This document shows, one piece after another, positions 5,508-53,472 of a DNA stretch of 64,000 nt. Location: positions 17,825 through 81,824 of the forward strand of contig JAEORO010000069.1 in NCBI GenBank assembly GCA_016840855.1. The letters run 5' to 3'. Each line of letters begins with the position of its first letter. Positions within the stretch are counted from its first letter, which is position 1. The translations under genes and the position numbers were made by a program. This stretch comes from Candidatus Thorarchaeota archaeon (GTDB taxonomy: Archaea > Asgardarchaeota > Thorarchaeia > Thorarchaeales > Thorarchaeaceae). The notes beneath the pieces were generated by a model. That model made no database searches and was not told where the DNA came from. It saw nothing but the letters and a program-made list of their open reading frames with translations.

Positions 5508-5686
5508 TTGTCAGTGCACCTCGATACTCAGATTACATATGACGATGCTGAATTACATTAATATCTTGTGTCATGTGGCATTATCAGCTTATTTTTCAAA
5601 GTCATATTAAAGTACTGGGATACCGCTATACCATTAAGGATTTAAATTGGCTTAAAGAGAATTTCTTTATCATTATATGAGGTAGT

Positions 5687-6631
5687 TTGATGAGAATTTT
5701 CCTAGCAGCCGATCCACACGGAAGTCAGCAAACATGGGAGAAGATGTGTAGAGCACCAAAAGTGTTCAAAGCCGATGTAGCAATGATGTGCGGAGACCTC
5801 ACTGGCAAGGCAATCATGCCAATTATTCAAGAGAAAGAAGATAGATGGTATGCCTCACCACATGGTAGCAAAAAAACATTCAAGAAGCAAAAGGACTTGG
5901 ATACTTTTATTAAATTCACAAAGGATGAAGGATACTATCCAAAGATCCTAACACCAGAGGAACTTGCCAAACTTCGAGAAACACCAGGCGCCATAACCAA
6001 ATTATTCCAAGATTTAATGCAAGAAAGAATACAGCTATGGATGGATATGGCAAATGAAAGAATTCCAGAAGACATTATGGTAGTTGTCAATCCAGGGAAC
6101 GATGATGACTTATCTATAGATAAGGTCATTCAGGACGATCCGCGGGTCATCTATCCTCTTAAGAAAGTTGTAGATGTAAGAGGGTATCCTATGATTAGCT
6201 TGGAGTGGGTAAATTCCACACCTTGGAACACTCATCGAGAATGCCCTGATGAGGAATTAATGGACAAGCTTGAAGCTGAGTTTGCCCGACTCGAAACGAA
6301 TGATTATTCAAATGTGATATGTAATTTTCATGATCCACCATATAATTCCGGACTGGATACCGCTCCTACATTGGATGAAGAATTCAAGATAAAGAAATCC
6401 GGTGCAATGGAGGTTCTGGGTCCTGTAGGGAGCAAGTCAGTTAGAGCTGTGATTGAAAAGTATGAACCACTTCTTGGTATGCATGGACACATTCACGAAT
6501 CTGTTGGATACCGGCAAATTGGTAGAACACTTTGTGTGAATCCGGGTTCGGAATATAGAGAAGGAATCTTGAAAGGTTTCCTAATCACAGTTGAGGATGG
6601 TAAAGTCCAAGCTGGTAGAGTTGAACTCTAA
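5687..6631 (+). CDS. Calcineurin-like metallophosphoesterase (Icc-related)
   Basis: All five motifs present: ADPHG, CGDLTGK, PGNDD, HDPP, HGHIHE; also NPGSEY. Confidence 0.9.
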   Translation: MMRIFLAADPHGSQQTWEKMCRAPKVFKADVAMMCGDLTGKAIMPIIQEKEDRWYASPHGSKKTFKKQKDLDTFIKFTKDEGYYPKILTPEELAKLRETPGAITKLFQDLMQERIQLWMDMANERIPEDIMVVVNPGNDDDLSIDKVIQDDPRVIYPLKKVVDVRGYPMISLEWVNSTPWNTHRECPDEELMDKLEAEFARLETNDYSNVICNFHDPPYNSGLDTAPTLDEEFKIKKSGAMEVLGPVGSKSVRAVIEKYEPLLGMHGHIHESVGYRQIGRTLCVNPGSEYREGILKGFLITVEDGKVQAGRVEL

Positions 6632-43166: not shown

Positions 43167-44519
43167 TTGAAGAGACCTGATGTTGTCATTGTTGGAGCTG
43201 GTTCCGCAGGATGTGTCACTGCAAGAAGGTGTGCAGAGCTTGGGCTGAAAACACTTCTTTTGGATAGAAAACCAAAGGAAGAAATCGGTCAAAAAGTATG
43301 TGGAGATGAGGTTAGTAAGGCTCATTTTGAAGCGACAGGGATAGATTACCCAGAGGACAAAGAAATTTCATCAGTAATTTCGGGAGCTGATGTCTATCCT
43401 CCCAACATGAAAAACGAATTAAAGGTCAGAGATTGGGCGGATTTTGATGGATGGACGGTAAATCGACTCATCTTTGGGCAAAGACTCTTGCGTGAAGCTA
43501 TTAGCGCTGGAGCGACATTCATGCCCAATATCCATGTTGGAAGCCCCATGATGATAGGCGATCAGGTCACAGGTGTCCAGTACAAAGACCTCTCCTCAGG
43601 AGATTCAGTCATCATAAAGAGTAAGGTCGTTGTTGATGCCAGTGGATTTGCAGCAGTGATTAGAAACAAATTGGACAATGCTCTAGTCGAGAACGACATC
43701 AGCAAAGAGGACATCGCACTCTGCTATAGAGAAATTCTCACCTTGAAGATGCCTTTAGCTGAGCCTGAAGTAGCTCGTGTCTTTCTTGGAGGCGAAATTG
43801 CACCAAAAGGGTATGGCTGGATTTTTCCGAAGGGTGCAAAAGTAGTTAATGCAGGCATTGGTATAACTGGAGGAGATGGTCGAGGCTCGCCCAAATCACA
43901 TTTTGTGAAGTTTAAAGAAACCTATCCACTTCTTTTTGGGACTAAGGTGATTGATGGAAAAGGAGGCGCAGTGCCAGTTCGACGACCACTAAAGAGTCTA
44001 GTTGGAGATGGTATTGCTTTTGTTGGAGATGCAGCATTACAAGTCAATCCAATCCATGGTGGTGGGATAGGAGCTGGAATGAGAGCGGGAATAATCCTAG
44101 GTGAAGTAGTACGAGGTGCGATAGCTAGAAGGGATGTTTCTGCAAATGGACTTTGGTCATATAACACAAGATATCTCTCGAGTTTTGGTCAAAGGCTTGC
44201 ATCACTTGAAATCTTCAGGAGACTCCTCCAAAGTGTTTCTGATGAAGATATGGACTTTGGTTTCGAACGGAAACTCTTGGAAGCAGAGGACCTGATGGCT
44301 GCAAATCGTGGTGATGGTTTCTCACTTAGTATCGTTGATAAATTAAAGAGAGTAAAAAGAGGAGCAGGTAGAATTTCACTCTTAATCAAATTACAAAAAG
44401 CTGCGGGATTGATGAAGAAAATGAATAAAGCATACAGCAACTACCCTAACAGCCCTGACAAACTTGATAGCTGGGAAAAAACTGTTCTAGATATTATTGA
44501 ATCAGCTAATTTCGAATAG
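43167..44519 (+). CDS. Digeranylgeranylglycerophospholipid reductase (geranylgeranyl reductase family)
   Basis: DVVIVGAG.AG, KVCGD, DASG, P.GYGWIFPKG, VGDAA.QVNPIHGGGI. Confidence 0.9.
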   Translation: MKRPDVVIVGAGSAGCVTARRCAELGLKTLLLDRKPKEEIGQKVCGDEVSKAHFEATGIDYPEDKEISSVISGADVYPPNMKNELKVRDWADFDGWTVNRLIFGQRLLREAISAGATFMPNIHVGSPMMIGDQVTGVQYKDLSSGDSVIIKSKVVVDASGFAAVIRNKLDNALVENDISKEDIALCYREILTLKMPLAEPEVARVFLGGEIAPKGYGWIFPKGAKVVNAGIGITGGDGRGSPKSHFVKFKETYPLLFGTKVIDGKGGAVPVRRPLKSLVGDGIAFVGDAALQVNPIHGGGIGAGMRAGIILGEVVRGAIARRDVSANGLWSYNTRYLSSFGQRLASLEIFRRLLQSVSDEDMDFGFERKLLEAEDLMAANRGDGFSLSIVDKLKRVKRGAGRISLLIKLQKAAGLMKKMNKAYSNYPNSPDKLDSWEKTVLDIIESANFE

Positions 44520-44528
44520 AGAAAGGTG

Positions 44529-44549
44529 GATGGTCTCTGGGAGACCATC
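44529..44549. terminator. Perfect hairpin between the convergent GGR and radA genes
   Basis: GATGGTCTC-TGG-GAGACCATC in a 43-nt gap between two stops. Confidence 0.65.
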
Positions 44550-44562
44550 AATACTTCTATGA

Positions 44563-45618
44563 TCAAACGTCACGAATGCCTTCTTTCAAGACGGTGAATA
44601 CCGCTTCACCTTCAGGAAGATTAGGCGAGTCTACAAGACGACAGATCCTTCGTTCGCCCTTTGACTTTCTGAGATAGCAGCGGGTTTGAGGTACATGTGC
44701 AAGTACATGTCCACCTACTGGAGCGGTTGGATCTCCAAAGAAAGCATCAGGTCGAGACATCACTTGATTTGTGATGTAAACAGCCATGTTGTTAATCTCT
44801 GCGCCTCGCTGAAGATGGTGCAGATGCTTGTTTAACTTCTGCTGCCTTGCTGCAAGAGTGCCTCTACCGGTATATTCTGCTCTGAAATGACTTGTGACTG
44901 AGTCTACGACTAGCAACTTGGCATTGTGCTCAGTAGCCATTTCCATGGCTTGATCACAAAGTAGGATCTGATGATCTGAATTATAGGCACGAGCCCATAC
45001 GACATTCTTCAGAACTTTTGCACTATCCATTCCATATGCTTCAGCCATGTCAACAAGACGTTCTGGTCGAAAGGTACCTTCAGTGTCAACGTAGATGGCT
45101 TTTGCATTCAATCCACCATCTTCAGGCAAGCGTTGTATATTTACGCATAATTGATGCGCCATTTGAGTCTTTCCAGATCTGAAAGAACCATACATCTCAG
45201 TAATAGATTGTGTTTCAATGCCGCCACCAAACAATTCATCGAGAGCTTTCGATCCTGTTGAAATTCTACCAGCAGTTCTTCGGCGTTCGAGAAGAAGGTC
45301 CGCTGTTTCGAAACCGATATCCAGCATCTCACGAGCTGCTTTGATAATCTTCGTAGCAGTCGTTTCACCAATTGATCCTGCAGCAGCAAGTTCACCTGGT
45401 GATGCAACAGCGATTGCTTCAACATTCTTATAGCCGGACTCAGCTAGACGTTTTCCAATAGCTGGACCTACACCCGGAAGATCAGTGACTTCAATGCCTG
45501 AAACGCTGGAGTCATCTCCTCCGGAGTCTTCTAATGTTTCTTCTTCAGTTCCTTCAAATTCCTCGTAATCCATTTCCTCGTCGTCGTGTTCTTCATCTGC
45601 TGCCTTCTTTGGTGACAA
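44563..45618 (-). CDS. radA: DNA repair and recombination protein RadA
   Basis: HhH N-domain DLPGVG, GF.TA, Walker A GSFRSGKTQ, YVDTEGTFRPER, LLVVDS, RQQ.L, ITNQV, DSPNLPE.E. Confidence 0.96.
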   Translation of the reverse strand: MSPKKAADEEHDDEEMDYEEFEGTEEETLEDSGGDDSSVSGIEVTDLPGVGPAIGKRLAESGYKNVEAIAVASPGELAAAGSIGETTATKIIKAAREMLDIGFETADLLLERRRTAGRISTGSKALDELFGGGIETQSITEMYGSFRSGKTQMAHQLCVNIQRLPEDGGLNAKAIYVDTEGTFRPERLVDMAEAYGMDSAKVLKNVVWARAYNSDHQILLCDQAMEMATEHNAKLLVVDSVTSHFRAEYTGRGTLAARQQKLNKHLHHLQRGAEINNMAVYITNQVMSRPDAFFGDPTAPVGGHVLAHVPQTRCYLRKSKGERRICRLVDSPNLPEGEAVFTVLKEGIRDV

Positions 45619-45820
45619 ATAGAAGACCTCCCATTATCACTCAACTTTGATCTTCAGATTTTGTTGAGTATCTAGACGTGATAGTGTTGATTCACTGAGT
45701 ATAAAAATAGCACTAGTGAACAGACCGAGTGATTAGACTATAACACTTCTAAAGAAGTTGACTCTATATACATCAATCATTCCTAGATTCGTTACAATAA
45801 TGATGTAATAGTAATCAGTT

Positions 45821-46147
45821 TCAACCACGCGTTAATGTGACAAGAATAAACTCTTCTTGAGGAGCGATTCGAATTCCACCCATGTTTGTTTGTATCTGAA
45901 TGAATGCTAACTCTCCGCCTTCTTTAACACCTCTGACTATCTCCCAAGTCTTGCCAATCAATGCGCTTAGAAGTGCAGAAATTTCTTCGGCACGCTCTAG
46001 CGTAACACCCCAAGTGTTTATGGGAAATCCTTCAGGGCTTATGAATAATGCAGCATAGACATCTGGAAACTTGCTTGTAATATTTTGAATAATCCTCTCG
46101 AATATTTCACGCTTTGGCATTGCTGGCATGTTTTTGTACACATCCAT
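45821..46147 (-). CDS. Roadblock/LC7 domain protein
   Basis: V.AALFISPEGFPI, ISAL.SAL......I......G.L..I.I.T..G.I.I.P....IL. Confidence 0.85.
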   Translation of the reverse strand: MDVYKNMPAMPKREIFERIIQNITSKFPDVYAALFISPEGFPINTWGVTLERAEEISALLSALIGKTWEIVRGVKEGGELAFIQIQTNMGGIRIAPQEEFILVTLTRG

Positions 46148-46305
46148 AGCAGTTTCTGGGTGTTCTGTATCTGAAAGGTGTTAAATGGACAAAGAAAAAG
46201 CTTGCTGTCATATAACTACCGGAAATATCCAATTTTCTAAAATGATTTCAGGAGATAAATTATAGAAAAGATTGAAGATTGGGTGTGAAATCCTGAAAGC
46301 AATCG

Positions 46306-46941
46306 GTGAATCTAGTGAAGTATCATGATGAGCTTCTTGAGTTAGAAGGAACAGGTATAACTATCTCGCGTATAATTTCCAGACTTACGCCAGCTCCGCT
46401 CATAAACCTGTATATTGGGATTATATTTTCGATATCATCACCAATTGGTTTGGGACCTGTTCTTGATGCCGCATCATCAATCATTATTTGTATAGTCATA
46501 ATGGTCGTGCTCCCTGTTACACCTATTATCCTTGAAGCTTTGAAAGGGAATGTGGACTTGGATGTTTCCAAGCGTGAGAGTAGAACTAAGTTCTTTTTGT
46601 TTTCAATGATGTGCTATGTTATAGCATTCGCAGTATATGGCATACTGAGATGTCATATTATGAGCACGCTTGCTGTGACTTATTTTACTGTCACTTTGGG
46701 AGTTACATTGGTAAGCTTGAAATCGAAGATATCGGTTCATGGAGCAGGAGTTGGAGGTCCAGGTGCCGCATTGATCTATGTATATGGTCCTTTTGCTCTC
46801 ATTGTTGGCATCATATGGGCGCTTGTAATTTACTCAAGGGTTACATTGAAACAGCACACTCTCATGCAGTCAATTGCTGGAGTATCACTTGGAGCAGTAA
46901 TCGCGTGGATTACGTATTTCTACATCTATATCCCAATATGA
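46306..46941 (+). CDS. PAP2-like membrane protein
   Basis: D.DV..R..R, KISVH, SRV.LK.HT..Q...G; about 6 TMs. Confidence 0.75.
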   Translation: MNLVKYHDELLELEGTGITISRIISRLTPAPLINLYIGIIFSISSPIGLGPVLDAASSIIICIVIMVVLPVTPIILEALKGNVDLDVSKRESRTKFFLFSMMCYVIAFAVYGILRCHIMSTLAVTYFTVTLGVTLVSLKSKISVHGAGVGGPGAALIYVYGPFALIVGIIWALVIYSRVTLKQHTLMQSIAGVSLGAVIAWITYFYIYIPI

Positions 46942-47047
46942 TAAAAATGCACATTCAATTATTTTGTACTAAATCAGTTCATATGTGAACTTTCAATTTC
47001 TATCCTGAAGCCAGAGAGCTATCTAACCATAGGAATGTCATCCGACA

Positions 47048-48286
47048 ATGAATGATCAAGTAATTTGTCCCACCTGTGGGAAACGCGTCAGAAGAGGATC
47101 GACATTCTGCATAGGTTGTGGAAACAAAGTGCCTGAAGATTTGCCATCAGCGCCACCTGAACCAACACTCGAAGAGTCTGAGATATTAGATGAAGCCGAT
47201 AAATTGCCGGGTTTAGATGAATCTGCTTTAGATGAAACTCCTGCTGAAGAACCTATTGCAGCAGATTCGGAGGTATTACCTCCAGTTGGAGAGGATTTCA
47301 GTTGGGATGATGGAGAATTATCATCAGTTGAATTGAAACCAATTGAAGAAGATATTTCATTCGTTGAGGAATCTTCTACTGAAGAAGAGTCCGAGGTATC
47401 GATTGAAACTTCAGAGGAAGAGCCTGAGCAAGAAGAAGGAAAGAGTACTGATATGTCATGGGAGGAAGGTGTTGAAGATGTCAAAGTGGGAATGCCATTC
47501 ACGGAGATAGAACCTCCCAGGGTTTATGATGAGGAGATTCCAGTAACGACGGAAGAGGCTCTAGATCACCTATTTCCTGAAGGAGCTCCAAAGGAGCTTC
47601 GCGAGGAAGCAAGAGAAGCTGTTGAACACCTATTTCCTGAGGGGAGAGGAACTACTACAAAAACGTTCATTGATGTGGTCGTTGGAAAACCATCAAAGAT
47701 TGATTTGAAAGGACCTCTCCAAGAGTTAGAAACTCCTGTATGTCCGAATTGTGGCGTTGCTCTCACCTCAGATGAGTTTGAGTATCCAAGCTATGTCTTT
47801 GAGGCTATGGGCAAAGCAAGGATTGATCATGGGGAACAACTCCTCCATGAGAATGAACACGAAAAAGCGATTGAATCTTTTGAAATAGCCAAGATGCTTT
47901 TCGAAAGAGCAAGAAATGAGAAGGGCATCGCAGAAAGTACAAAGAGAGTTGATATTGGATATGATGCGATGGCCAAGTTCCATTTTGACCAAGGCGAGAA
48001 CCATATGAAGGTCAACGAGTACGAATGGGCGATTGTTCAATTTAGGAAGGCAAGAGAACTCTATATGTTCAGCACCGATGCTAAGAAGCGAGCTCGTTGT
48101 TCAGAAAAAGTTAGAGAAGCGTATATAGAATGGGGAAAAGATTTGGAATCCCAAGGAGACCAATTATCCAAGCAGGGGAGTTCCCGGGATGCATTAGCCA
48201 AATATCAAGAAGCCGCAGCTAAGTATAGAGAGGGCGATGATCAAAAGAGGCTGAAAGGCCTTGACAAGAAAATCAGGAAAGCGTAA
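47048..48286 (+). CDS. Zinc-ribbon / acidic disordered / TPR-like protein
   Basis: CPTCG...FCIGCG; long E/D/P-rich linker; CPNCG; C-terminal TPR-like helices (AI..F..A..L). Confidence 0.8.
   Translation: MNDQVICPTCGKRVRRGSTFCIGCGNKVPEDLPSAPPEPTLEESEILDEADKLPGLDESALDETPAEEPIAADSEVLPPVGEDFSWDDGELSSVELKPIEEDISFVEESSTEEESEVSIETSEEEPEQEEGKSTDMSWEEGVEDVKVGMPFTEIEPPRVYDEEIPVTTEEALDHLFPEGAPKELREEAREAVEHLFPEGRGTTTKTFIDVVVGKPSKIDLKGPLQELETPVCPNCGVALTSDEFEYPSYVFEAMGKARIDHGEQLLHENEHEKAIESFEIAKMLFERARNEKGIAESTKRVDIGYDAMAKFHFDQGENHMKVNEYEWAIVQFRKARELYMFSTDAKKRARCSEKVREAYIEWGKDLESQGDQLSKQGSSRDALAKYQEAAAKYREGDDQKRLKGLDKKIRKA
47567..47640 (+). repeat. Intragenic 14-bp direct repeat encoding HLFPE twice
   Basis: CACCTATTTCCTGA at 47567-47580 and 47627-47640 (60-nt period). 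Confidence 0.8.
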
Positions 48287-48291
48287 GATTG

Positions 48292-49215
48292 CTAGTCTTT
48301 CCTCGGTTTGAACCCTGTGAGTCGAAGTATATTATCTCTAAAAATCAAATCAACATCTTCCTGTTTATAATTAAATTTAGGTAACAAAGACTTGACTGCA
48401 TTGTACTGCTCTTCTAGTATGTTATATCTAAATCCACGAGGAAAGAATGAAGAATCAGTCCCAAAAACAACTCTGCAAGAAGCCCCTGCTTTCAAGGCAC
48501 GTTCAAAGATTTTAGTTATTGTTAAGTCCACCTCTTGATAGTTCATCCAGTTGTTGCTACCACTTGTATCCATCACAACATTATGAGTCTGATACATGAG
48601 CATCAATACCTCGCGGAAAAATCCAGCTCCGAAATGGGCAATCATGAAGTTCAAATCGGGAAAATCAAGTGCAGGCTTTTGTATATCTAAGGGGTTTCCA
48701 TAACGAAGGTTAGCCTGAGTCCCTATAGTTATACCAAAATGAAGAATAACCAGTAGTTTTTGCCTAAGAGCTTCCTCAAAGATTGGGTATACTCGATCAT
48801 CATACACATGGAAATCCCAAGAGCTGGGGTATAATTTTATTCCTTGAAACTCATCCTTTCCAGCTCGTTTCACGTTTTCTACTGCGTTTTCATCAGCAGG
48901 ATTGATATTAGCATACCCTAGAAATCGACCTGGAAACCGTTTTCTAGTCGCATTAAATTCATCCCAGACCTCTTCTCCAATCATCATACCAATAGCTGTA
49001 ATTCCATACTTATCTAATTCATCAGCCCACATCTGACCAGCATCCCAAGTTTCATCAGGGATTGTAAGTTTTGGCATATCAGTCTGAAAAGCGACTCTAT
49101 TCTGCATTCGCTCAAGTGAAGCTCCGCTCTCTATCCATCGTTTAATTGTGTTATATGTAAAGAAGTGCGCATGACTGTCAATCACTTCAGTTCCAATTTT
49201 TGATATCACAATCAT
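48292..49215 (-). CDS. Amidohydrolase_2 family metal-dependent hydrolase
   Basis: IDSHAH, GIKLYP, VILHFG, IAHFG, DTSG, VFGTDS. Confidence 0.88.
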   Translation of the reverse strand: MIVISKIGTEVIDSHAHFFTYNTIKRWIESGASLERMQNRVAFQTDMPKLTIPDETWDAGQMWADELDKYGITAIGMMIGEEVWDEFNATRKRFPGRFLGYANINPADENAVENVKRAGKDEFQGIKLYPSSWDFHVYDDRVYPIFEEALRQKLLVILHFGITIGTQANLRYGNPLDIQKPALDFPDLNFMIAHFGAGFFREVLMLMYQTHNVVMDTSGSNNWMNYQEVDLTITKIFERALKAGASCRVVFGTDSSFFPRGFRYNILEEQYNAVKSLLPKFNYKQEDVDLIFRDNILRLTGFKPRKD

Positions 49216-49300
49216 CCTATCCCTAAGATTCTCTATAGCTATTCTAGTTCGAGCTCATTAGGTAATAAGAACTCACTTGTGGCATGGATTGGATTTTAGG

Positions 49301-51472
49301 TTAAATCCAATCGCCAGTTTCGAGCTTTCGAGGAAGATACTCATCAGTGAGATACTCGAAACTGTGGCTAGCAAAGGCTTGAATCTCTGCCTTCTCTTTA
49401 AGCCTCAACATTAGTTCTAAATCTTCAACCCATGGTTTATTTCGTTTAACAAATGGTTCTTTCAGCATATCTTTGACTCGTTTAATATCAGTAGGCTGCA
49501 TTGGAATCCTTACTGCTTTAGGAATCTTATATTCATCCAAATCACGACTTAGGACACCAAGAAGCTTAAGCTCAGGGGTAGCAATGAATGGAGATTCGTA
49601 GCTAAGTCTCTTACTTCCTCTGAGAAAGACCGAATATATGTAGTGACCATAAGGATCAGAGTCAACAAGTGCAAAAGCTGGTATCTCAAGCTCTTTAACA
49701 AGCATCTTTAGAAAAGCTCTGGTAGCAATATCTCCTGAACCCTTACCAGTTATCACAATACATGGTTGACGATTCCAATATTTCGCTTCTGCTAGTCGCA
49801 TAACTGCAGCATCCTTCTCAGATAATATGATGAACTCGGCATCACTTTCGACTATCTCTAGCTGGTCCAAGAAGGGTGTAACAGCCCATCCACCTGTACC
49901 CATCTTTGTAAGATCGATAAGATCACCGCCATCCCGAATAGTGACCCGACCCATTGCGGAACCACGAGCAGATGCCACGACATGAATACTATCACGTGTG
50001 GTCTGAATCATTGAAGCAACGTCTTCAATGATCTTATCGCTGTACTTCTGTTCTCTAAATAGATTAACATCACTGTAGTAAACTTCTCTTTTGGTAGCAT
50101 GTAAATTAGATTTGAGAAGGTTAAACACAATCTCCATCACGCGCGCGGTTCTTGTTGCATCAACAACTGATGCAAGCGAGTGATATGGACGAGATATTGT
50201 ACGCATTCCCAGAAGGAGTAAGTCGCGTACCTCATCCCATACTATGTTGTCACCAGACCTGCTTGGGATATCAAATGCAGGCCTGCCAGTCAACATGGTT
50301 TCGTTTAGAATATCGATTGCTGTATCTATAATCCTCTCAGTTGTATCATCTGCTGTGAGGTTTACAACTTCGACGGTTTCAATAATAGGTTCTACACTTT
50401 CACCAGGTTCTTTGGAGGCTTGAACTCGCTTCTCTGCAGCAGCCCAGTTTTCCTTCATCTCATCGGCTAAATTCTTGATGGTTGTAGGAACACTCAACCC
50501 CGATTCCTTTCTTGTTGGTTTGGGCTTCTTTTTTGGTGGTGGTTTGAGTGTCTTTGTTGGTCCTTTAACTGGAGGAGCTTTCTTACCAGGAACAGCTTTC
50601 TTTGATGGTTTCTCTTTTGTTGGTTTTTTCCGAGGTTTGGGTTCTATCACTGTTTCTTCCTTCTCTGGCGTCGTCATTGTTTCTGTCGAAGTTGCAGGTG
50701 TAGGTGTAGGTGTAGGGATCGGTTCTACGGTCAGTTCAGCTAGTTCCTGTTCCCGAACCATATCTTTTGCAGCATTAACAATTGACGCTGCTCTCGCGAT
50801 ACTAAGGCCGCCAACTTTCTTTGCGACATTCTCAGGTGAGGCTCGAGCCAACCGAGCAACAGAATCATAACCAGCACGCTCCATGGAAAGAGCAAGTTTA
50901 GATCCTAAGCCAGGAACATCTGTGAGCGATAGTTTCGGAGCTCTGATTTCCTCTTCTGGAGCCTCTGGCTGAGGTTCAGAAGGCTCTGTTATTGCAGGAG
51001 TTGATACACTTCGTTTCACCAGATCTTTTGCAGCATCTGTAAGTTTCTTTGCTCCGGCTTGACTAAGTCCCTCGACTTTCTTCGCTAGTGAAGGAGGTCT
51101 TGCGCGAGAAATCTTTTCTACAGTTTCATATTTTGCTTTGATGAGCTTTTCTTGAAGTTTGGATCCTACACCAGGAAGGTCAGTTAAACTAAACGCACTT
51201 TCTGGTAGTTCGGTCGGAACCTCTTTCTTTGGTTTGGGTTCTTTCTTCTGCTTTTTCGACACAGCCTTCTTTTTAGGAACTACTTTCTTCTCAGAGCCTT
51301 TTTTTGACACACGTTTTGGTTTCTTTGAGCTTGCTGCTTTTTGGTCTGGCTTCTTTGTTTTCTTCTTTGTTGACTTTGCTTTGGTACTCTTCTTCGTCTT
51401 GGGCTCTTCAACAACCTCATTCAGTGTTGCTTGAATTGTAGTTGACTTTTCCTTGGCTTTTTTACGGCTCAC
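49301..51472 (-). CDS. top6A: DNA topoisomerase VI subunit A (Spo11 family) with long N-terminal extension
   Basis: Catalytic TKREVYY, TOPRIM EKDA, ITGKG, DSDPYG, K.E.QA, YL..K; overlaps the top6B stop. Confidence 0.93.
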   Translation of the reverse strand: MSRKKAKEKSTTIQATLNEVVEEPKTKKSTKAKSTKKKTKKPDQKAASSKKPKRVSKKGSEKKVVPKKKAVSKKQKKEPKPKKEVPTELPESAFSLTDLPGVGSKLQEKLIKAKYETVEKISRARPPSLAKKVEGLSQAGAKKLTDAAKDLVKRSVSTPAITEPSEPQPEAPEEEIRAPKLSLTDVPGLGSKLALSMERAGYDSVARLARASPENVAKKVGGLSIARAASIVNAAKDMVREQELAELTVEPIPTPTPTPATSTETMTTPEKEETVIEPKPRKKPTKEKPSKKAVPGKKAPPVKGPTKTLKPPPKKKPKPTRKESGLSVPTTIKNLADEMKENWAAAEKRVQASKEPGESVEPIIETVEVVNLTADDTTERIIDTAIDILNETMLTGRPAFDIPSRSGDNIVWDEVRDLLLLGMRTISRPYHSLASVVDATRTARVMEIVFNLLKSNLHATKREVYYSDVNLFREQKYSDKIIEDVASMIQTTRDSIHVVASARGSAMGRVTIRDGGDLIDLTKMGTGGWAVTPFLDQLEIVESDAEFIILSEKDAAVMRLAEAKYWNRQPCIVITGKGSGDIATRAFLKMLVKELEIPAFALVDSDPYGHYIYSVFLRGSKRLSYESPFIATPELKLLGVLSRDLDEYKIPKAVRIPMQPTDIKRVKDMLKEPFVKRNKPWVEDLELMLRLKEKAEIQAFASHSFEYLTDEYLPRKLETGDWI

Positions 51473-53472
51473 TCAAGCTCACCTTCTTCAATAACTTCTT
51501 CTTCATCATCTAGAGGGATGTCAGCAATAAGATCAGTTCCAAAAGCGTCAGTTTCAGTTTCTTCTTGATCTTCAACAGTTTCGAAACCTGTGATTGAGTC
51601 CCTTATTTTACCTGCAATTGTTTCAGCATCAAAAAGAGGTTTCTTCTTACCATCATTGGCAATGGTCACCAGACTCTGTGCAAATTGGTCAGCATACATT
51701 GCAAGAATTCCAGCTCGTTTTGCCTTTCTTCGAGCTGTTTCACGTCGTGTTATGAATCTCCTAAATTTACGTCCTGCATCTTCAAGAGCGAGTTTAATCT
51801 CTCTAAGAAGCACCTCATCCTCTGCAAGAGCTTGTTTGCTCTGGCCCTTGAACATGACGTGAACATATGCTCCAGCAACGTGAATGAATACCATAACAGG
51901 ACCACGAGGAATTCCATTGTCAAAAGTCTGCAGTTTATAGTTCCTCCAATTTACTGATGCAGTTGCTTTCCAGGTAGCACAATCACTATTATCTCTTAAT
52001 TTTGGTACTCGATTTACAAACCTCCAAAGGACCATAGGTGCTGAAGAGGCAGGTTTTATTTCACCGCCATAAGCAATGCAAACCTCGATGGCGAAAGAAA
52101 GACCTTTTCCAGATGTAGGTTTTCTTGTTACTGCAGCAACAAAGTCAGGTTTGTAGGCCATCTTTATTGTCTGTTCAAATATCTCTTCACCAACAGGAAC
52201 AACTGTATCTGTAGGAGGAGCAATATAGTCCTCACTTGAAAAAGCTCGATAAAGGAGCTCGACCTCAGTCTTCGAAAGAGTGTCGGTAGGAGTTGTCATT
52301 TTAAGGTCATCTAGATGCCTTCTTCTGAGATCCTTACTAGCGTTCGATACAATTGTCTTTGCTTTATTAGTGCTAAGTCGACAAAATGCTTTGGTTAGAA
52401 AGCTTCTAAGATCAGGTTCTCTGGTTTCTCTTAAGAGATCTTGGAACTCACCAATCCTTATACTTGCAGGGTGTGGTTGAGCGTATTTTGGCTCTTCCGG
52501 AAAAGTACTAACTCTACGAGGATGTATGTGAACTACACCGTATGGATCAATGAAAATAATCGTGACATGGGAGTTCAGAAGCGAGGCCATCTCAGCATAA
52601 ATGTCAGCATAACCTCGTCGGTATTGGATATTCAAATAATACAATCTAATGTAGGTGCCATGGTGAAATGGAAGATCCATATTTACTGGTCCGCCAACAT
52701 GTTCCTTTGTGTTTGCAGTAGTTGTGTAGAAGTTGGTGACAGTAGCAGTATCAGAGTGGAATCTTTTCGATATCGTGAAGATTGGTTTTCCAGTGGTATT
52801 CTGAGCATCACTGAAGGCTGAAGGTGCACCAAATCCTTGACTTCCTCTTGTTTGTCTTAGTTTCTCAGACTTACTTGACGCAAGATAGATGCCAAATTTC
52901 TCAAGGTCATTCGGGACCATACCAACGCCAGTATCAAAACAAGTGAACTCGTATACTTTGAAACCTTCTTCATCATCAATAGATACTAAATCAGGCATTT
53001 GCACTTCCTTTAATTCCATAACGACTATTGGCTCTCTCTTTGACAATAATGAACGTAAAGGCATTACAAATTTTCTGAATTCTGTTATTCTTTCATCAAT
53101 AGTTTCTTTTCGTCGCTGCGGAATTTCTATTTCCTTTCCAGCCTTCACATCTCTTTCAAGCTGCTTACTTAGGGCAATGGTATCAATTTGGCCTTCTTCA
53201 AGTTTGGCTCGGACCTCAGCTATAACAGCGGGATCTAGTTGATCTTGAAGACGTGGGTGCCTTTTTGTCTTCCACCACCAGCTTTCAAGCGCATCGATAG
53301 CGTTGTCCAAGAACTCGATCGCATATTGGGTATGCTTGTTAAGACCAGTTTCAAATCCAACAAGCTGCGTACGTTTTCGCATGAATTTTGCAATTGTCCC
53401 CTGCTTGATGTCTCCTGTTTCGACCTTGGCTGGGGCTGGTGTTGGATTTGAGTTCGATTTCTTATCGGACAA
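51469..53472 (-). CDS. top6B: DNA topoisomerase VI subunit B
   Basis: GHKL motifs E..DNAIDA, DTGVG, SK...RQTRG.QG.G, HGT; HP, PP...V.P.GE, RFVNRVP, F....KQA. Confidence 0.93.
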   Translation of the reverse strand: MSDKKSNSNPTPAPAKVETGDIKQGTIAKFMRKRTQLVGFETGLNKHTQYAIEFLDNAIDALESWWWKTKRHPRLQDQLDPAVIAEVRAKLEEGQIDTIALSKQLERDVKAGKEIEIPQRRKETIDERITEFRKFVMPLRSLLSKREPIVVMELKEVQMPDLVSIDDEEGFKVYEFTCFDTGVGMVPNDLEKFGIYLASSKSEKLRQTRGSQGFGAPSAFSDAQNTTGKPIFTISKRFHSDTATVTNFYTTTANTKEHVGGPVNMDLPFHHGTYIRLYYLNIQYRRGYADIYAEMASLLNSHVTIIFIDPYGVVHIHPRRVSTFPEEPKYAQPHPASIRIGEFQDLLRETREPDLRSFLTKAFCRLSTNKAKTIVSNASKDLRRRHLDDLKMTTPTDTLSKTEVELLYRAFSSEDYIAPPTDTVVPVGEEIFEQTIKMAYKPDFVAAVTRKPTSGKGLSFAIEVCIAYGGEIKPASSAPMVLWRFVNRVPKLRDNSDCATWKATASVNWRNYKLQTFDNGIPRGPVMVFIHVAGAYVHVMFKGQSKQALAEDEVLLREIKLALEDAGRKFRRFITRRETARRKAKRAGILAMYADQFAQSLVTIANDGKKKPLFDAETIAGKIRDSITGFETVEDQEETETDAFGTDLIADIPLDDEEEVIEEGELE

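Follow-up and report, generated by a model that had tools for sequence, protein, structure and literature searches.

A topoisomerase VI A subunit with a flexible N-terminal arm of (HhH)2 modules and basic tracts in Thorarchaeaceae

Why an A subunit of topoisomerase VI (Topo VI) should carry about 370 residues ahead of its catalytic core is the question raised by the top6A gene at 49301..51472 on the minus strand of the DNA analysed here. This DNA, referred to as the window, is a stretch of 64,000 nucleotides from a Candidatus Thorarchaeota archaeon (contig JAEORO010000069.1, positions 17,825 to 81,824). In the answer that we favor, with a probability of roughly 0.6, this Asgard A subunit bears a flexible arm that would serve as a non-specific DNA tether, with a tip that would dock on PCNA and an acidic tail of the B subunit (Top6B) that would regulate it. 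The Thorarchaeaceae appear to have added the arm to Top6A as two polycationic disordered tracts and two double helix-hairpin-helix modules, (HhH)2.

A complete A subunit behind the arm

The top6A gene is a single open reading frame (ORF) of 723 aa that starts with GTG and ends at a stop codon at 49301-49303, and both the ORF listing and Pfam describe its product as a fusion of an N-terminal arm with a Top6A core. Pfam assigned two stretches of HHH_5 (E 5.2e-18, 65.7 bits, cut-off 27), TP6A_N (PF04406; aa 440-498, E 1.2e-19), and the TOP6A-Spo11 Toprim domain (PF21180; aa 547-717, E 1.5e-53) to this one protein. In a search of Protein Data Bank (PDB) sequences, aa 389-723 paired with the 389-aa Top6A of S. 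shibatae over its residues 28-388, and because this alignment begins only at aa 389, some 360-370 residues at the N-terminus are extra. The ORF, the Pfam domains, and the alignment to solved Top6A thus agree with the original prediction, made from the sequence alone, of one ORF with about 370 extra N-terminal residues before an intact core.

The core (aa 374-723; 49304..50353, minus strand) consists of a 5Y-CAP domain with Y466 (codon at 50075-50077) and a Toprim domain with E552, D604, and D606. In an alignment of 47 sequences from Asgard, eukaryote-like, and other archaeal relatives, R462, Y466, E552, and D604 were invariant and D606 nearly so. Y466 lies in the motif R-E-V-Y-Y, the second tyrosine of which we take to be the catalytic one, and was also invariant in 22 close sequences. 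The full-length structure model was poor in the core (mean predicted local distance difference test score (pLDDT) 49.4, shallow alignment), and the core was remodelled on the broader alignment of 47 sequences. The resulting model of aa 320-723 reached a pLDDT of 94.9 and a predicted template modelling score (pTM) of 0.92. Foldseek matched it to M. mazei Top6A (9o0g_A; E 7.4e-30, template modelling score over the target (TMt) 0.89), and also to 2zbk (S. shibatae), 1d3y (M. jannaschii), 2q2e, and yeast Spo11 (8urq). At the sequence level, the protein matched solved Top6A chains with E 7.8e-58, and the best NCBIfam model for the core was NF003333, covered at profile positions 8-366 of 367 with 296.2 bits against a cut-off of 465, such equivalog models being clade-specific. 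The Pfam domains, the invariant Y466, E552, and D604, and the likeness of the core model to M. mazei Top6A confirm that the catalytic core is intact, as had been claimed; the protein is a Topo VI A subunit with an intact active site. With the canonical archaeal Top6A proteins (S. shibatae 2zbk_A, 389 aa; M. mazei 2q2e/9o0g, 369 aa; M. jannaschii 1d3y), it has in common the 5Y-CAP and Toprim domains, the catalytic tyrosine, the E/DxD site, an adjacent top6B gene, and the fold (TMt 0.78-0.89). It differs from them in the N-terminal extension and in a core identity of only 26-30%.

The adjacent top6B gene (51469..53472, minus strand) encodes 667 aa, was recognized by Topo-VIb_trans (E 8e-43) and by NCBIfam PRK04184 (335.7 bits, cut-off 274), and its product ends in a conserved acidic C-terminal tail. 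The PRK04184 match begins only at aa 163 (profile position 63), and this late start points to some 100 additional aa inserted into the GHKL domain of Top6B. The acidic tail is kept in the family, with 16-26 Asp and Glu in the last 70 residues at 15 family loci, and contains the family-conserved motif E-T-E-T-D..G.D-L-V-A-D-V-P-L (window 51469-51680, minus strand). It sits immediately before the basic start of Top6A. The GTG start codon of top6A overlaps the TGA stop codon of top6B as GTGA, and a Shine-Dalgarno-like word, GGTGA, lies about 9 nt upstream of the GTG. On the usual picture of such an overlap combined with such a word, top6A is predicted to be translationally coupled to top6B. The first in-frame methionine of the frame is M197, within the second module of the arm.

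A quick maximum-likelihood tree of 47 rows placed the window core in a clade of 26 rows (support 100), which also includes proteins from the sister-family genome G025 and the Asgard genomes G031 and G038, a Promethearchaeota protein, and a protein of the diatom Thalassiosira. By this tree, the core is assigned to a conserved, eukaryote-related Asgard Top6A clade. The window's genome (G000) holds two or three further compact Top6B/Top6A pairs that have no arm, and its own C246 and C44 Top6A paralogues fall on the other side of the tree. The C246 pair consists of a Top6B-like protein of 505 aa (L043 4057-5574) and a Top6A-like protein of 355 aa (5552-6619) with Y-Y and DxD intact. The C44 pair (514 and 381 aa; L045 2585-4129 and 4122-5267) has D-M-S instead of DxD, as does a third Top6A-like gene at a contig start, C229 (271-1419), and the metal site of C44 and C229 may be degenerate.

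The paralogue set of the window's genome and the quick tree agree with the available text of PMC12680538, in which the conserved Asgard Top6A is sister to eukaryotic Top6A/Spo11 and the second and third copies of Thorarchaeia are related to other archaea. The helix predicted ahead of the core may correspond to the extra N-terminal helix of Asgard and eukaryal TopoVIA in the accessible part of PMC9665070. GyrA was searched for in this 92%-complete genome and none was found, in line with the portion of PMC9348778 at hand.

Anatomy and spread of the arm

From the N-terminus, the arm runs on the minus strand through a conserved tip (aa 1-22; 51407..51472), a Lys-rich disordered tract 1 (aa 23-92; 51197..51406), (HhH)2 module 1 (aa 93-155; 51008..51196), an acidic Pro-rich linker (aa 156-181; 50930..51007), (HhH)2 module 2 (aa 182-245; 50738..50929), and a disordered tract 2 (aa 246-322; 50507..50737) to an SGLxVP motif with the extra N-terminal helix (aa ~323-353; 50414..50506). 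Tract 1 was delimited by composition and a pLDDT of 30-41. Residues 1-92 include 34 Lys and Arg and 10 Asp and Glu, and in the alignment of relatives tract 1 keeps its composition, not its sequence (identity 0.28-0.34). The linker is 23% Pro and 23% Glu with a pLDDT below 50. Tract 2, defined by composition and the model, is rich first in Thr, Pro, and Glu and then in Pro and Lys, with 17% Pro and 17% Lys over aa 243-370. Within it, an (AGGTGT)3.5 repeat at 50696-50716 encodes a Thr-Pro run, (TP)n, and contigs from two other sequencing runs have a 6-nt in-frame deletion at 50696, which is a population length polymorphism of the disordered tract. In the SGLxVP region, S324 and V328 were invariant in the 22 close sequences, and the helix at aa 330-353 (pLDDT 91-96 in the core model) precedes the helix that matches the start of solved Top6A.

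Both modules belong to HHH_5 by Pfam, whose best stretch is aa 182-237, and the module hidden Markov models (HMMs) built here place them at aa 93-154 and 181-242. Their pLDDT was 79-87 and 81-90, and a five-helix pattern was predicted in each. The module models matched (HhH)2 domains with Z 8-10 over 57-66 residues (root-mean-square deviation 1.6-2.5), namely those of POLQ, NusA, Rad51, RAD51C, pol iota, and DisA, and matched topoisomerase V (Topo V) with Z 6.2. The best PDB sequence match of aa 80-240 was the HhH array of Topo V (E 5.9e-6 to 7.2e-6). The second hairpin of the modules reads G-L-S, not G-h-G, in this genus. Pfam, the module HMMs, composition, and the model show that the Lys-rich tract, the two HhH modules, and the Pro/Lys-rich tract had been described accurately. 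The term histone-H1-like, used for the tails, holds for their Lys/Pro-rich composition, but Pfam listed no linker-histone (GH1/GH5 winged-helix) domain for the 723-aa protein at E≤0.01.

The architecture recurs throughout the family. Among the 120 relatives listed of 245 matches to the 723-aa protein, all 120 combine HHH_5, TP6A_N, and Toprim, with lengths of 583-756 aa; 24 of them carry organism names (21 Thorarchaeota, 2 Promethearchaeota, and 1 Odinarchaeota). A class-wide genome search gave a match in 82 of 87 genomes. Open frames of 685-954 aa were present in 62 of the 81 Thorarchaeaceae genomes with a match, the window's genome included, and another, G044, has a 658-aa top6A directly behind top6B in the same frame. 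The other 18 are shorter; among them, 12 begin at most 18 bases from a contig end and 1 is masked. The arm is fixed across the family Thorarchaeaceae. A 1364-aa B-A fusion frame in G044 was rejected as a single gene, as it reads top6B, TAG, and then the top6A ATG in the same frame; read-through of this TAG (L022 6950-7010) would yield a B-A fusion protein.

The number of modules varies. A module-HMM scan of 17 family loci and 3 outgroup loci, all fetched for this purpose, revealed two modules at 11 family loci, three at 1, four at 3, and seven at 1, one further locus being masked; the seven-module Top6A is 951 aa long. No module was found in the sister-family G025 (420 aa) or in the Asgard G038 and G031 (435 and 416 aa), which have only a Lys-rich tail of 60-80 aa. 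Such a short Lys-rich N-terminal tail is thus common to the fetched Asgard Top6A proteins, and the HhH modules occur among these loci in the Thorarchaeaceae copies only. Because neighbouring modules are up to 97% identical (97% or 83% in some loci) and a 246-nt unit stands in tandem with 91% matches in G065, growth of the arrays is considered recent, and the arrays appear to expand by duplication independently in different genera.

Top6A architectures were also surveyed more widely, as the original prediction had proposed. The Top6A core gave 3508 matches at E≤0.001, and 28 long proteins among the best 150 representative clusters were scanned. Two of these 28 contained HHH_5, with four and seven stretches like the Thorarchaeaceae forms, 10 were long through inteins, and 16 had no extra Pfam domain. 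No HhH arm on Top6A is described in the literature searched, which included the main texts of PMC12680538 and PMC9665070, part of PMC11302465, and one spreadsheet supplement of PMC12680538. Two other relatives of the core, P0123 (461 aa) and P0130 (470 aa), have N-terminal extensions of about 120-135 residues that look ubiquitin-like by eye and for which no Pfam domain was listed at E≤1e-4. These two may be Top6A fusions of another kind, belonging to further Asgard-like lineages.

Considering that the extension could be a separate gene misjoined to top6A, we looked at the continuity of the locus. A unitig of 917-923 nt running from module 1 into the core was identical in contigs of three other studies, and a run of a fourth study bridges the boundary of arm and core; several short parts of the stretch are without a contig in single runs. 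A search for stand-alone two-module proteins (84-268 aa) yielded 3 fragments only, all on contigs of 702-2840 nt, and a split or stand-alone arm was rejected.

Kinship of the modules and the tip

The original prediction had aligned both modules by eye with the N-domain of RadA (RadA-N), encoded 3.7 kb away. The radA gene (44563..45618, minus strand; Pfam Rad51 E 1.2e-95, HHH_5 at aa 43-97) indeed lies 3683 nt from the end of top6A, and the modules are of the same Pfam family as RadA-N. The likeness is weak, with identities of 34% and 32% for modules 1 and 2, compared with 39-50% for the module hosts other than RadA. Three further proteins of the window's genome carry one HHH_5 module and a Lys-rich linker each: ribosomal protein L32e (C183:42938-43759, minus strand), the RNA polymerase subunit Rpo6 (C105:16061-16741, plus strand), and a multi-pass membrane protein (C210:23392-24975, minus strand). 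With the HMMs of module 1 and module 2, the L32e N-terminus scored 65.5 and 54.0 bits, the Rpo6 N-terminus 50.2 and 42.4, the C-terminus of the membrane protein 42.4 and 45.1, and RadA-N 30.2 and 31.2. Module 1 is 50% identical to module 2, 48% to L32e, 47% to Rpo6, and 34% to RadA; among this genome's five HHH_5 modules, RadA-N stands furthest apart. In the four hosts other than RadA, the second hairpin also reads G-L-S throughout, and the module differs in length from RadA-N by one residue.

The phylogeny of the modules against RadA-N, another of the proposed checks, was run with 64 rows and 63 columns. Each host protein formed its own supported clade, RadA-N stood separately on the longest stem and was not the nearest relative, and because the backbone of the tree was not resolved, no donor of the modules can be named. 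A module query in the sister genome G025 returned RadA only. It looks as though this nucleic-acid-binding module reached L32e, Rpo6, the membrane protein, and Top6A within Thorarchaeaceae alone, with RadA-N as a possible remote evolutionary source. In NCBIfam, the best named match of the module region was RadA, with 50.2 bits against a cut-off of 361. The FxxA motif for docking on RadA was searched for in aa 1-370 and none was found; the sole Phe, F94 in A-F-S-L-T, is not conserved in the consensus.

The neighbourhood of the two genes was compared as well. In the window (43167-53472), top6B and top6A are followed by a Zn-ribbon/TPR gene, a membrane gene, a Roadblock-like gene, radA, and a geranylgeranyl-reductase-like gene, with an amidohydrolase gene behind top6A in some genomes. 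This order is kept throughout the class. The radA gene was within the fetched flank at 10 of the 17 family loci. The same order occurs in G025, whose Top6A has no arm, and in the window the two middle genes between top6A and radA are on the opposite strand. On these two grounds, the vicinity of top6 and radA is older than the arm and does not form an operon. A specific link through descent from RadA or coupling to it was rejected on the module HMMs, the identities, the module tree, and synteny.

The tip of the arm is a basic run followed by Q14-x-T16-L17-x-E-V-V, delimited on the alignment of relatives and on a complex model. Q14, T16, and L17 were present in all 113 ungapped rows of the 120 relatives, and the pattern Q-x-T-L-x-[DEN]-hydrophobic-hydrophobic in 100 of 120, with 7 of the 20 misses truncated at the N-terminus. 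At the 16 readable family loci, Q-x-[TS]-L was kept in 16. The canonical PCNA-interacting protein (PIP) box has the consensus Qxx[LIM]xx[FYW][FYWL]. The C-terminus of Fen1 in this genome reads QSTLSDFF, and with such PIP-box clients of PCNA the tip has in common Q-x-T-L-x-acid-hydrophobic-hydrophobic and basic flanks. It differs from them in its N-terminal position, in Val-Val for the aromatic pair, and in positions 7-8, which vary at 6 of the 16 readable loci.

Contig C132 encodes two PCNA paralogues in tandem, one of 251 and one of 257 aa (L041 1036-1791 and 1976-2749, both minus strand), and the first one was modelled with aa 1-45 of Top6A. The complex scored 0.79, and the best of 3 controls 0.00; of the pairs with a known answer, 58 of 80 solved complexes passed the same mark, as did 2 of 110 mismatched pairs, counts that apply only roughly here since the complex was modelled on our own alignment. 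The runs agreed in at least 71% of contacts, with a partner pLDDT of at least 50. Arm residues 11-21 contacted PCNA residues 40, 43-47, 126, 226-227, and 243-250, which we take to be the usual PIP pocket of interdomain loop and C-terminal tail. The complex model supports binding of the tip to PCNA without showing it. A regular-expression search for the tip motif across the genome gave 3 matches and no informative second client.

Proposed role of the arm

According to the tether model, the (HhH)2 modules would grip duplex DNA by its phosphate backbone, whatever the sequence, as expected from their family. The A2B2 enzyme would have two arms and hence four (HhH)2 modules, and the arms, each with a net charge of about +36 (sum of segment compositions), would exit at the A-B junction beside the DNA gate. 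They could thereby keep the enzyme on DNA, raise the local DNA concentration and salt tolerance, and aid capture of the second duplex. Topo VI requires a second duplex to act at crossings, for both decatenation and relaxation. According to the accessible text of PMC11894792, the Topo VI of M. mazei senses crossings and acts preferentially as a decatenase, and the arm would retain such a low-affinity, crossing-dependent enzyme on its substrate. In a comparable case, fusion to HhH domains increases the salt tolerance of Phi29 polymerase (PMC8313265, as far as available). The QxTLxEVV tip is probably a docking point of the arm for PCNA, through which the enzyme would be brought to replication forks. 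The acidic tail of Top6B may serve either to mask the arm or as a docking motif; as a mask, it could fold back on the basic arm when DNA is absent. The original interpretation of a Topo VI with added non-specific DNA-binding modules is thus retained as a probable one, without the physical coupling to recombination.

Several observations weigh against this tether model. The tip fits the canonical PIP box at Q14 and L17 and has Val-Val at positions 7-8 with no aromatic pair, so that it is PIP-like only; the hydrophobic pair is kept at just 10 of the 16 readable loci, and the result of the complex model may reflect likeness to the many solved PCNA-PIP complexes. With G-L-S in the second hairpin, DNA contacts there may be weaker. 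Because the same module is also present on L32e, Rpo6, and the membrane protein, it may serve contacts with RNA or protein, or may be a neutral lineage-specific passenger. The sister lineage G025 and the other Asgard genomes G038 and G031 manage without the arm. Finally, the top6A locus was looked for in RNA sequencing runs, and no run was listed as holding it.

This last result, together with a start codon that is GTG and not ATG, would suit the view that the extension is a separate gene misjoined by assembly or gene calling, or that translation truly begins near aa 360 and an untranslated leader precedes it. We consider this hardly conceivable, given the full-length open frame in 62 family genomes, the unitigs over both modules and the core start in runs of three studies and the bridging fourth, the position of M197 inside module 2, the conservation of the tip at the protein level, and the start that overlaps the top6B stop behind a Shine-Dalgarno-like word; nor was a stand-alone form of the arm found. 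It is also very unlikely that the RadA-N-like modules let Topo VI bind or mimic RadA as a forerunner of Spo11-Rad51 coupling. The common HHH_5 family, the best named NCBIfam match, the recurring vicinity of radA, and RadA-N as the only return in G025, hence a possible distant source, speak for this idea. Against it stand the 30-31 bits of RadA-N next to the 42-65 bits of L32e, Rpo6, and the membrane protein, the lower identity, the longest stem in the module tree, an arm without FxxA, the opposite-strand genes in between, and G025, which has the same neighbourhood and no HhH arm.

An arm that works as a compactor or bridge in the manner of histone H1 or nucleoid proteins, or as a chromatin-address tag that sets this enzyme apart from its compact paralogues, and not as a kinetic aid, is less unlikely, though still improbable. 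The Lys/Pro-rich tracts that are conserved in composition and not in sequence, the multivalent arrays of up to seven modules, and the two or three arm-less Top6B/Top6A pairs, which invite a division of labour (PMC12680538), would fit it. Pfam, however, listed no linker-histone globular domain, the arm was always joined to an intact core with no free form found, and this role overlaps the tether model and does not exclude it. Least probable of the functional roles is that one or both (HhH)2 modules carry an apurinic/apyrimidinic or deoxyribose phosphate lyase site, making the enzyme bifunctional. Topo V joins a topoisomerase to (HhH)2 domains, three of them with apurinic/apyrimidinic lyase sites (PMC9489208 and PMC4838376, in the parts available), and its array is the best PDB sequence match of the arm; but this match is weak (28 bits) and covers generic HhH positions only, and the occurrence of the module on L32e and Rpo6 as well speaks for simple binding.

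By analogy, the HhH array of Topo V (Methanopyrus kandleri, type IC) would be the nearest precedent of the arm. It comprises 12 tandem (HhH)2 domains in the available text of PMC9489208, and Thorarchaeaceae arrays, likewise tandem and joined to a topoisomerase, reach seven. The catalytic domains are unrelated (type IC and IIB, respectively), and the Topo V array is C-terminal, whereas that of Top6A is N-terminal with long basic disordered linkers between the modules. Within the same lineage, L32e and Rpo6 share with Top6A the HHH_5 module, its G-L-S second hairpin, and the Lys-rich linker behind it. Unlike Top6A, these hosts belong to the ribosome and RNA polymerase, with one module each and no PIP-like tip. 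NCBIfam PRK12766 likewise models an L32e whose N-terminus bears an HhH, and a long Rpo6 N-terminus in Thorarchaeota is mentioned in the accessible part of PMC13257274.

A fuller version of the tether model would make the arm a coupler to replisome and chromatin: by its tip the enzyme would be loaded on PCNA, either ahead of a fork or behind it, both sister duplexes would be gripped by the HhH modules and Lys tracts, the Top6B tail would mask the arm off DNA, and 2-7 modules would tune avidity genus by genus. We put it forward tentatively, as a possibility more doubtful than the tether itself. Were it true, a lineage that also divides work among three Topo VI paralogues would have evolved a prokaryotic equivalent of the basic, regulated C-terminal domain found in eukaryotic topoisomerase II. 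That domain and the accessory proteins BIN4 and RHL1 of plant Topo VI link their type II topoisomerases to chromatin as disordered, positively charged appendages or partners. The parallel is one of analogy only, as there is no sequence kinship and position and composition differ. BIN4 is mentioned in the available part of PMC9665070.

The arm-bearing protein is a lineage-specific variant of a known enzyme, and the fusion has no bearing on the origin of meiotic breaks in the way originally hoped, with closer modules elsewhere, no FxxA motif, and the radA vicinity present without an arm in G025. The interest of the arm lies in the enzyme that bears it: no type II topoisomerase other than Topo VI was found in this genome, and the arm-bearing copy belongs to the lineage from which eukaryotic TOP6A and SPO11 are reported to stem. 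A type IIB topoisomerase with a variable HhH array would be a second, independent case, beside Topo V, of holding DNA in this way, and the natural series of 0, 2, 3, 4, and 7 modules may allow the effect of tethering on crossing capture and decatenation to be followed. The tip, for its part, is a candidate for the first link of an archaeal Topo VI to PCNA.

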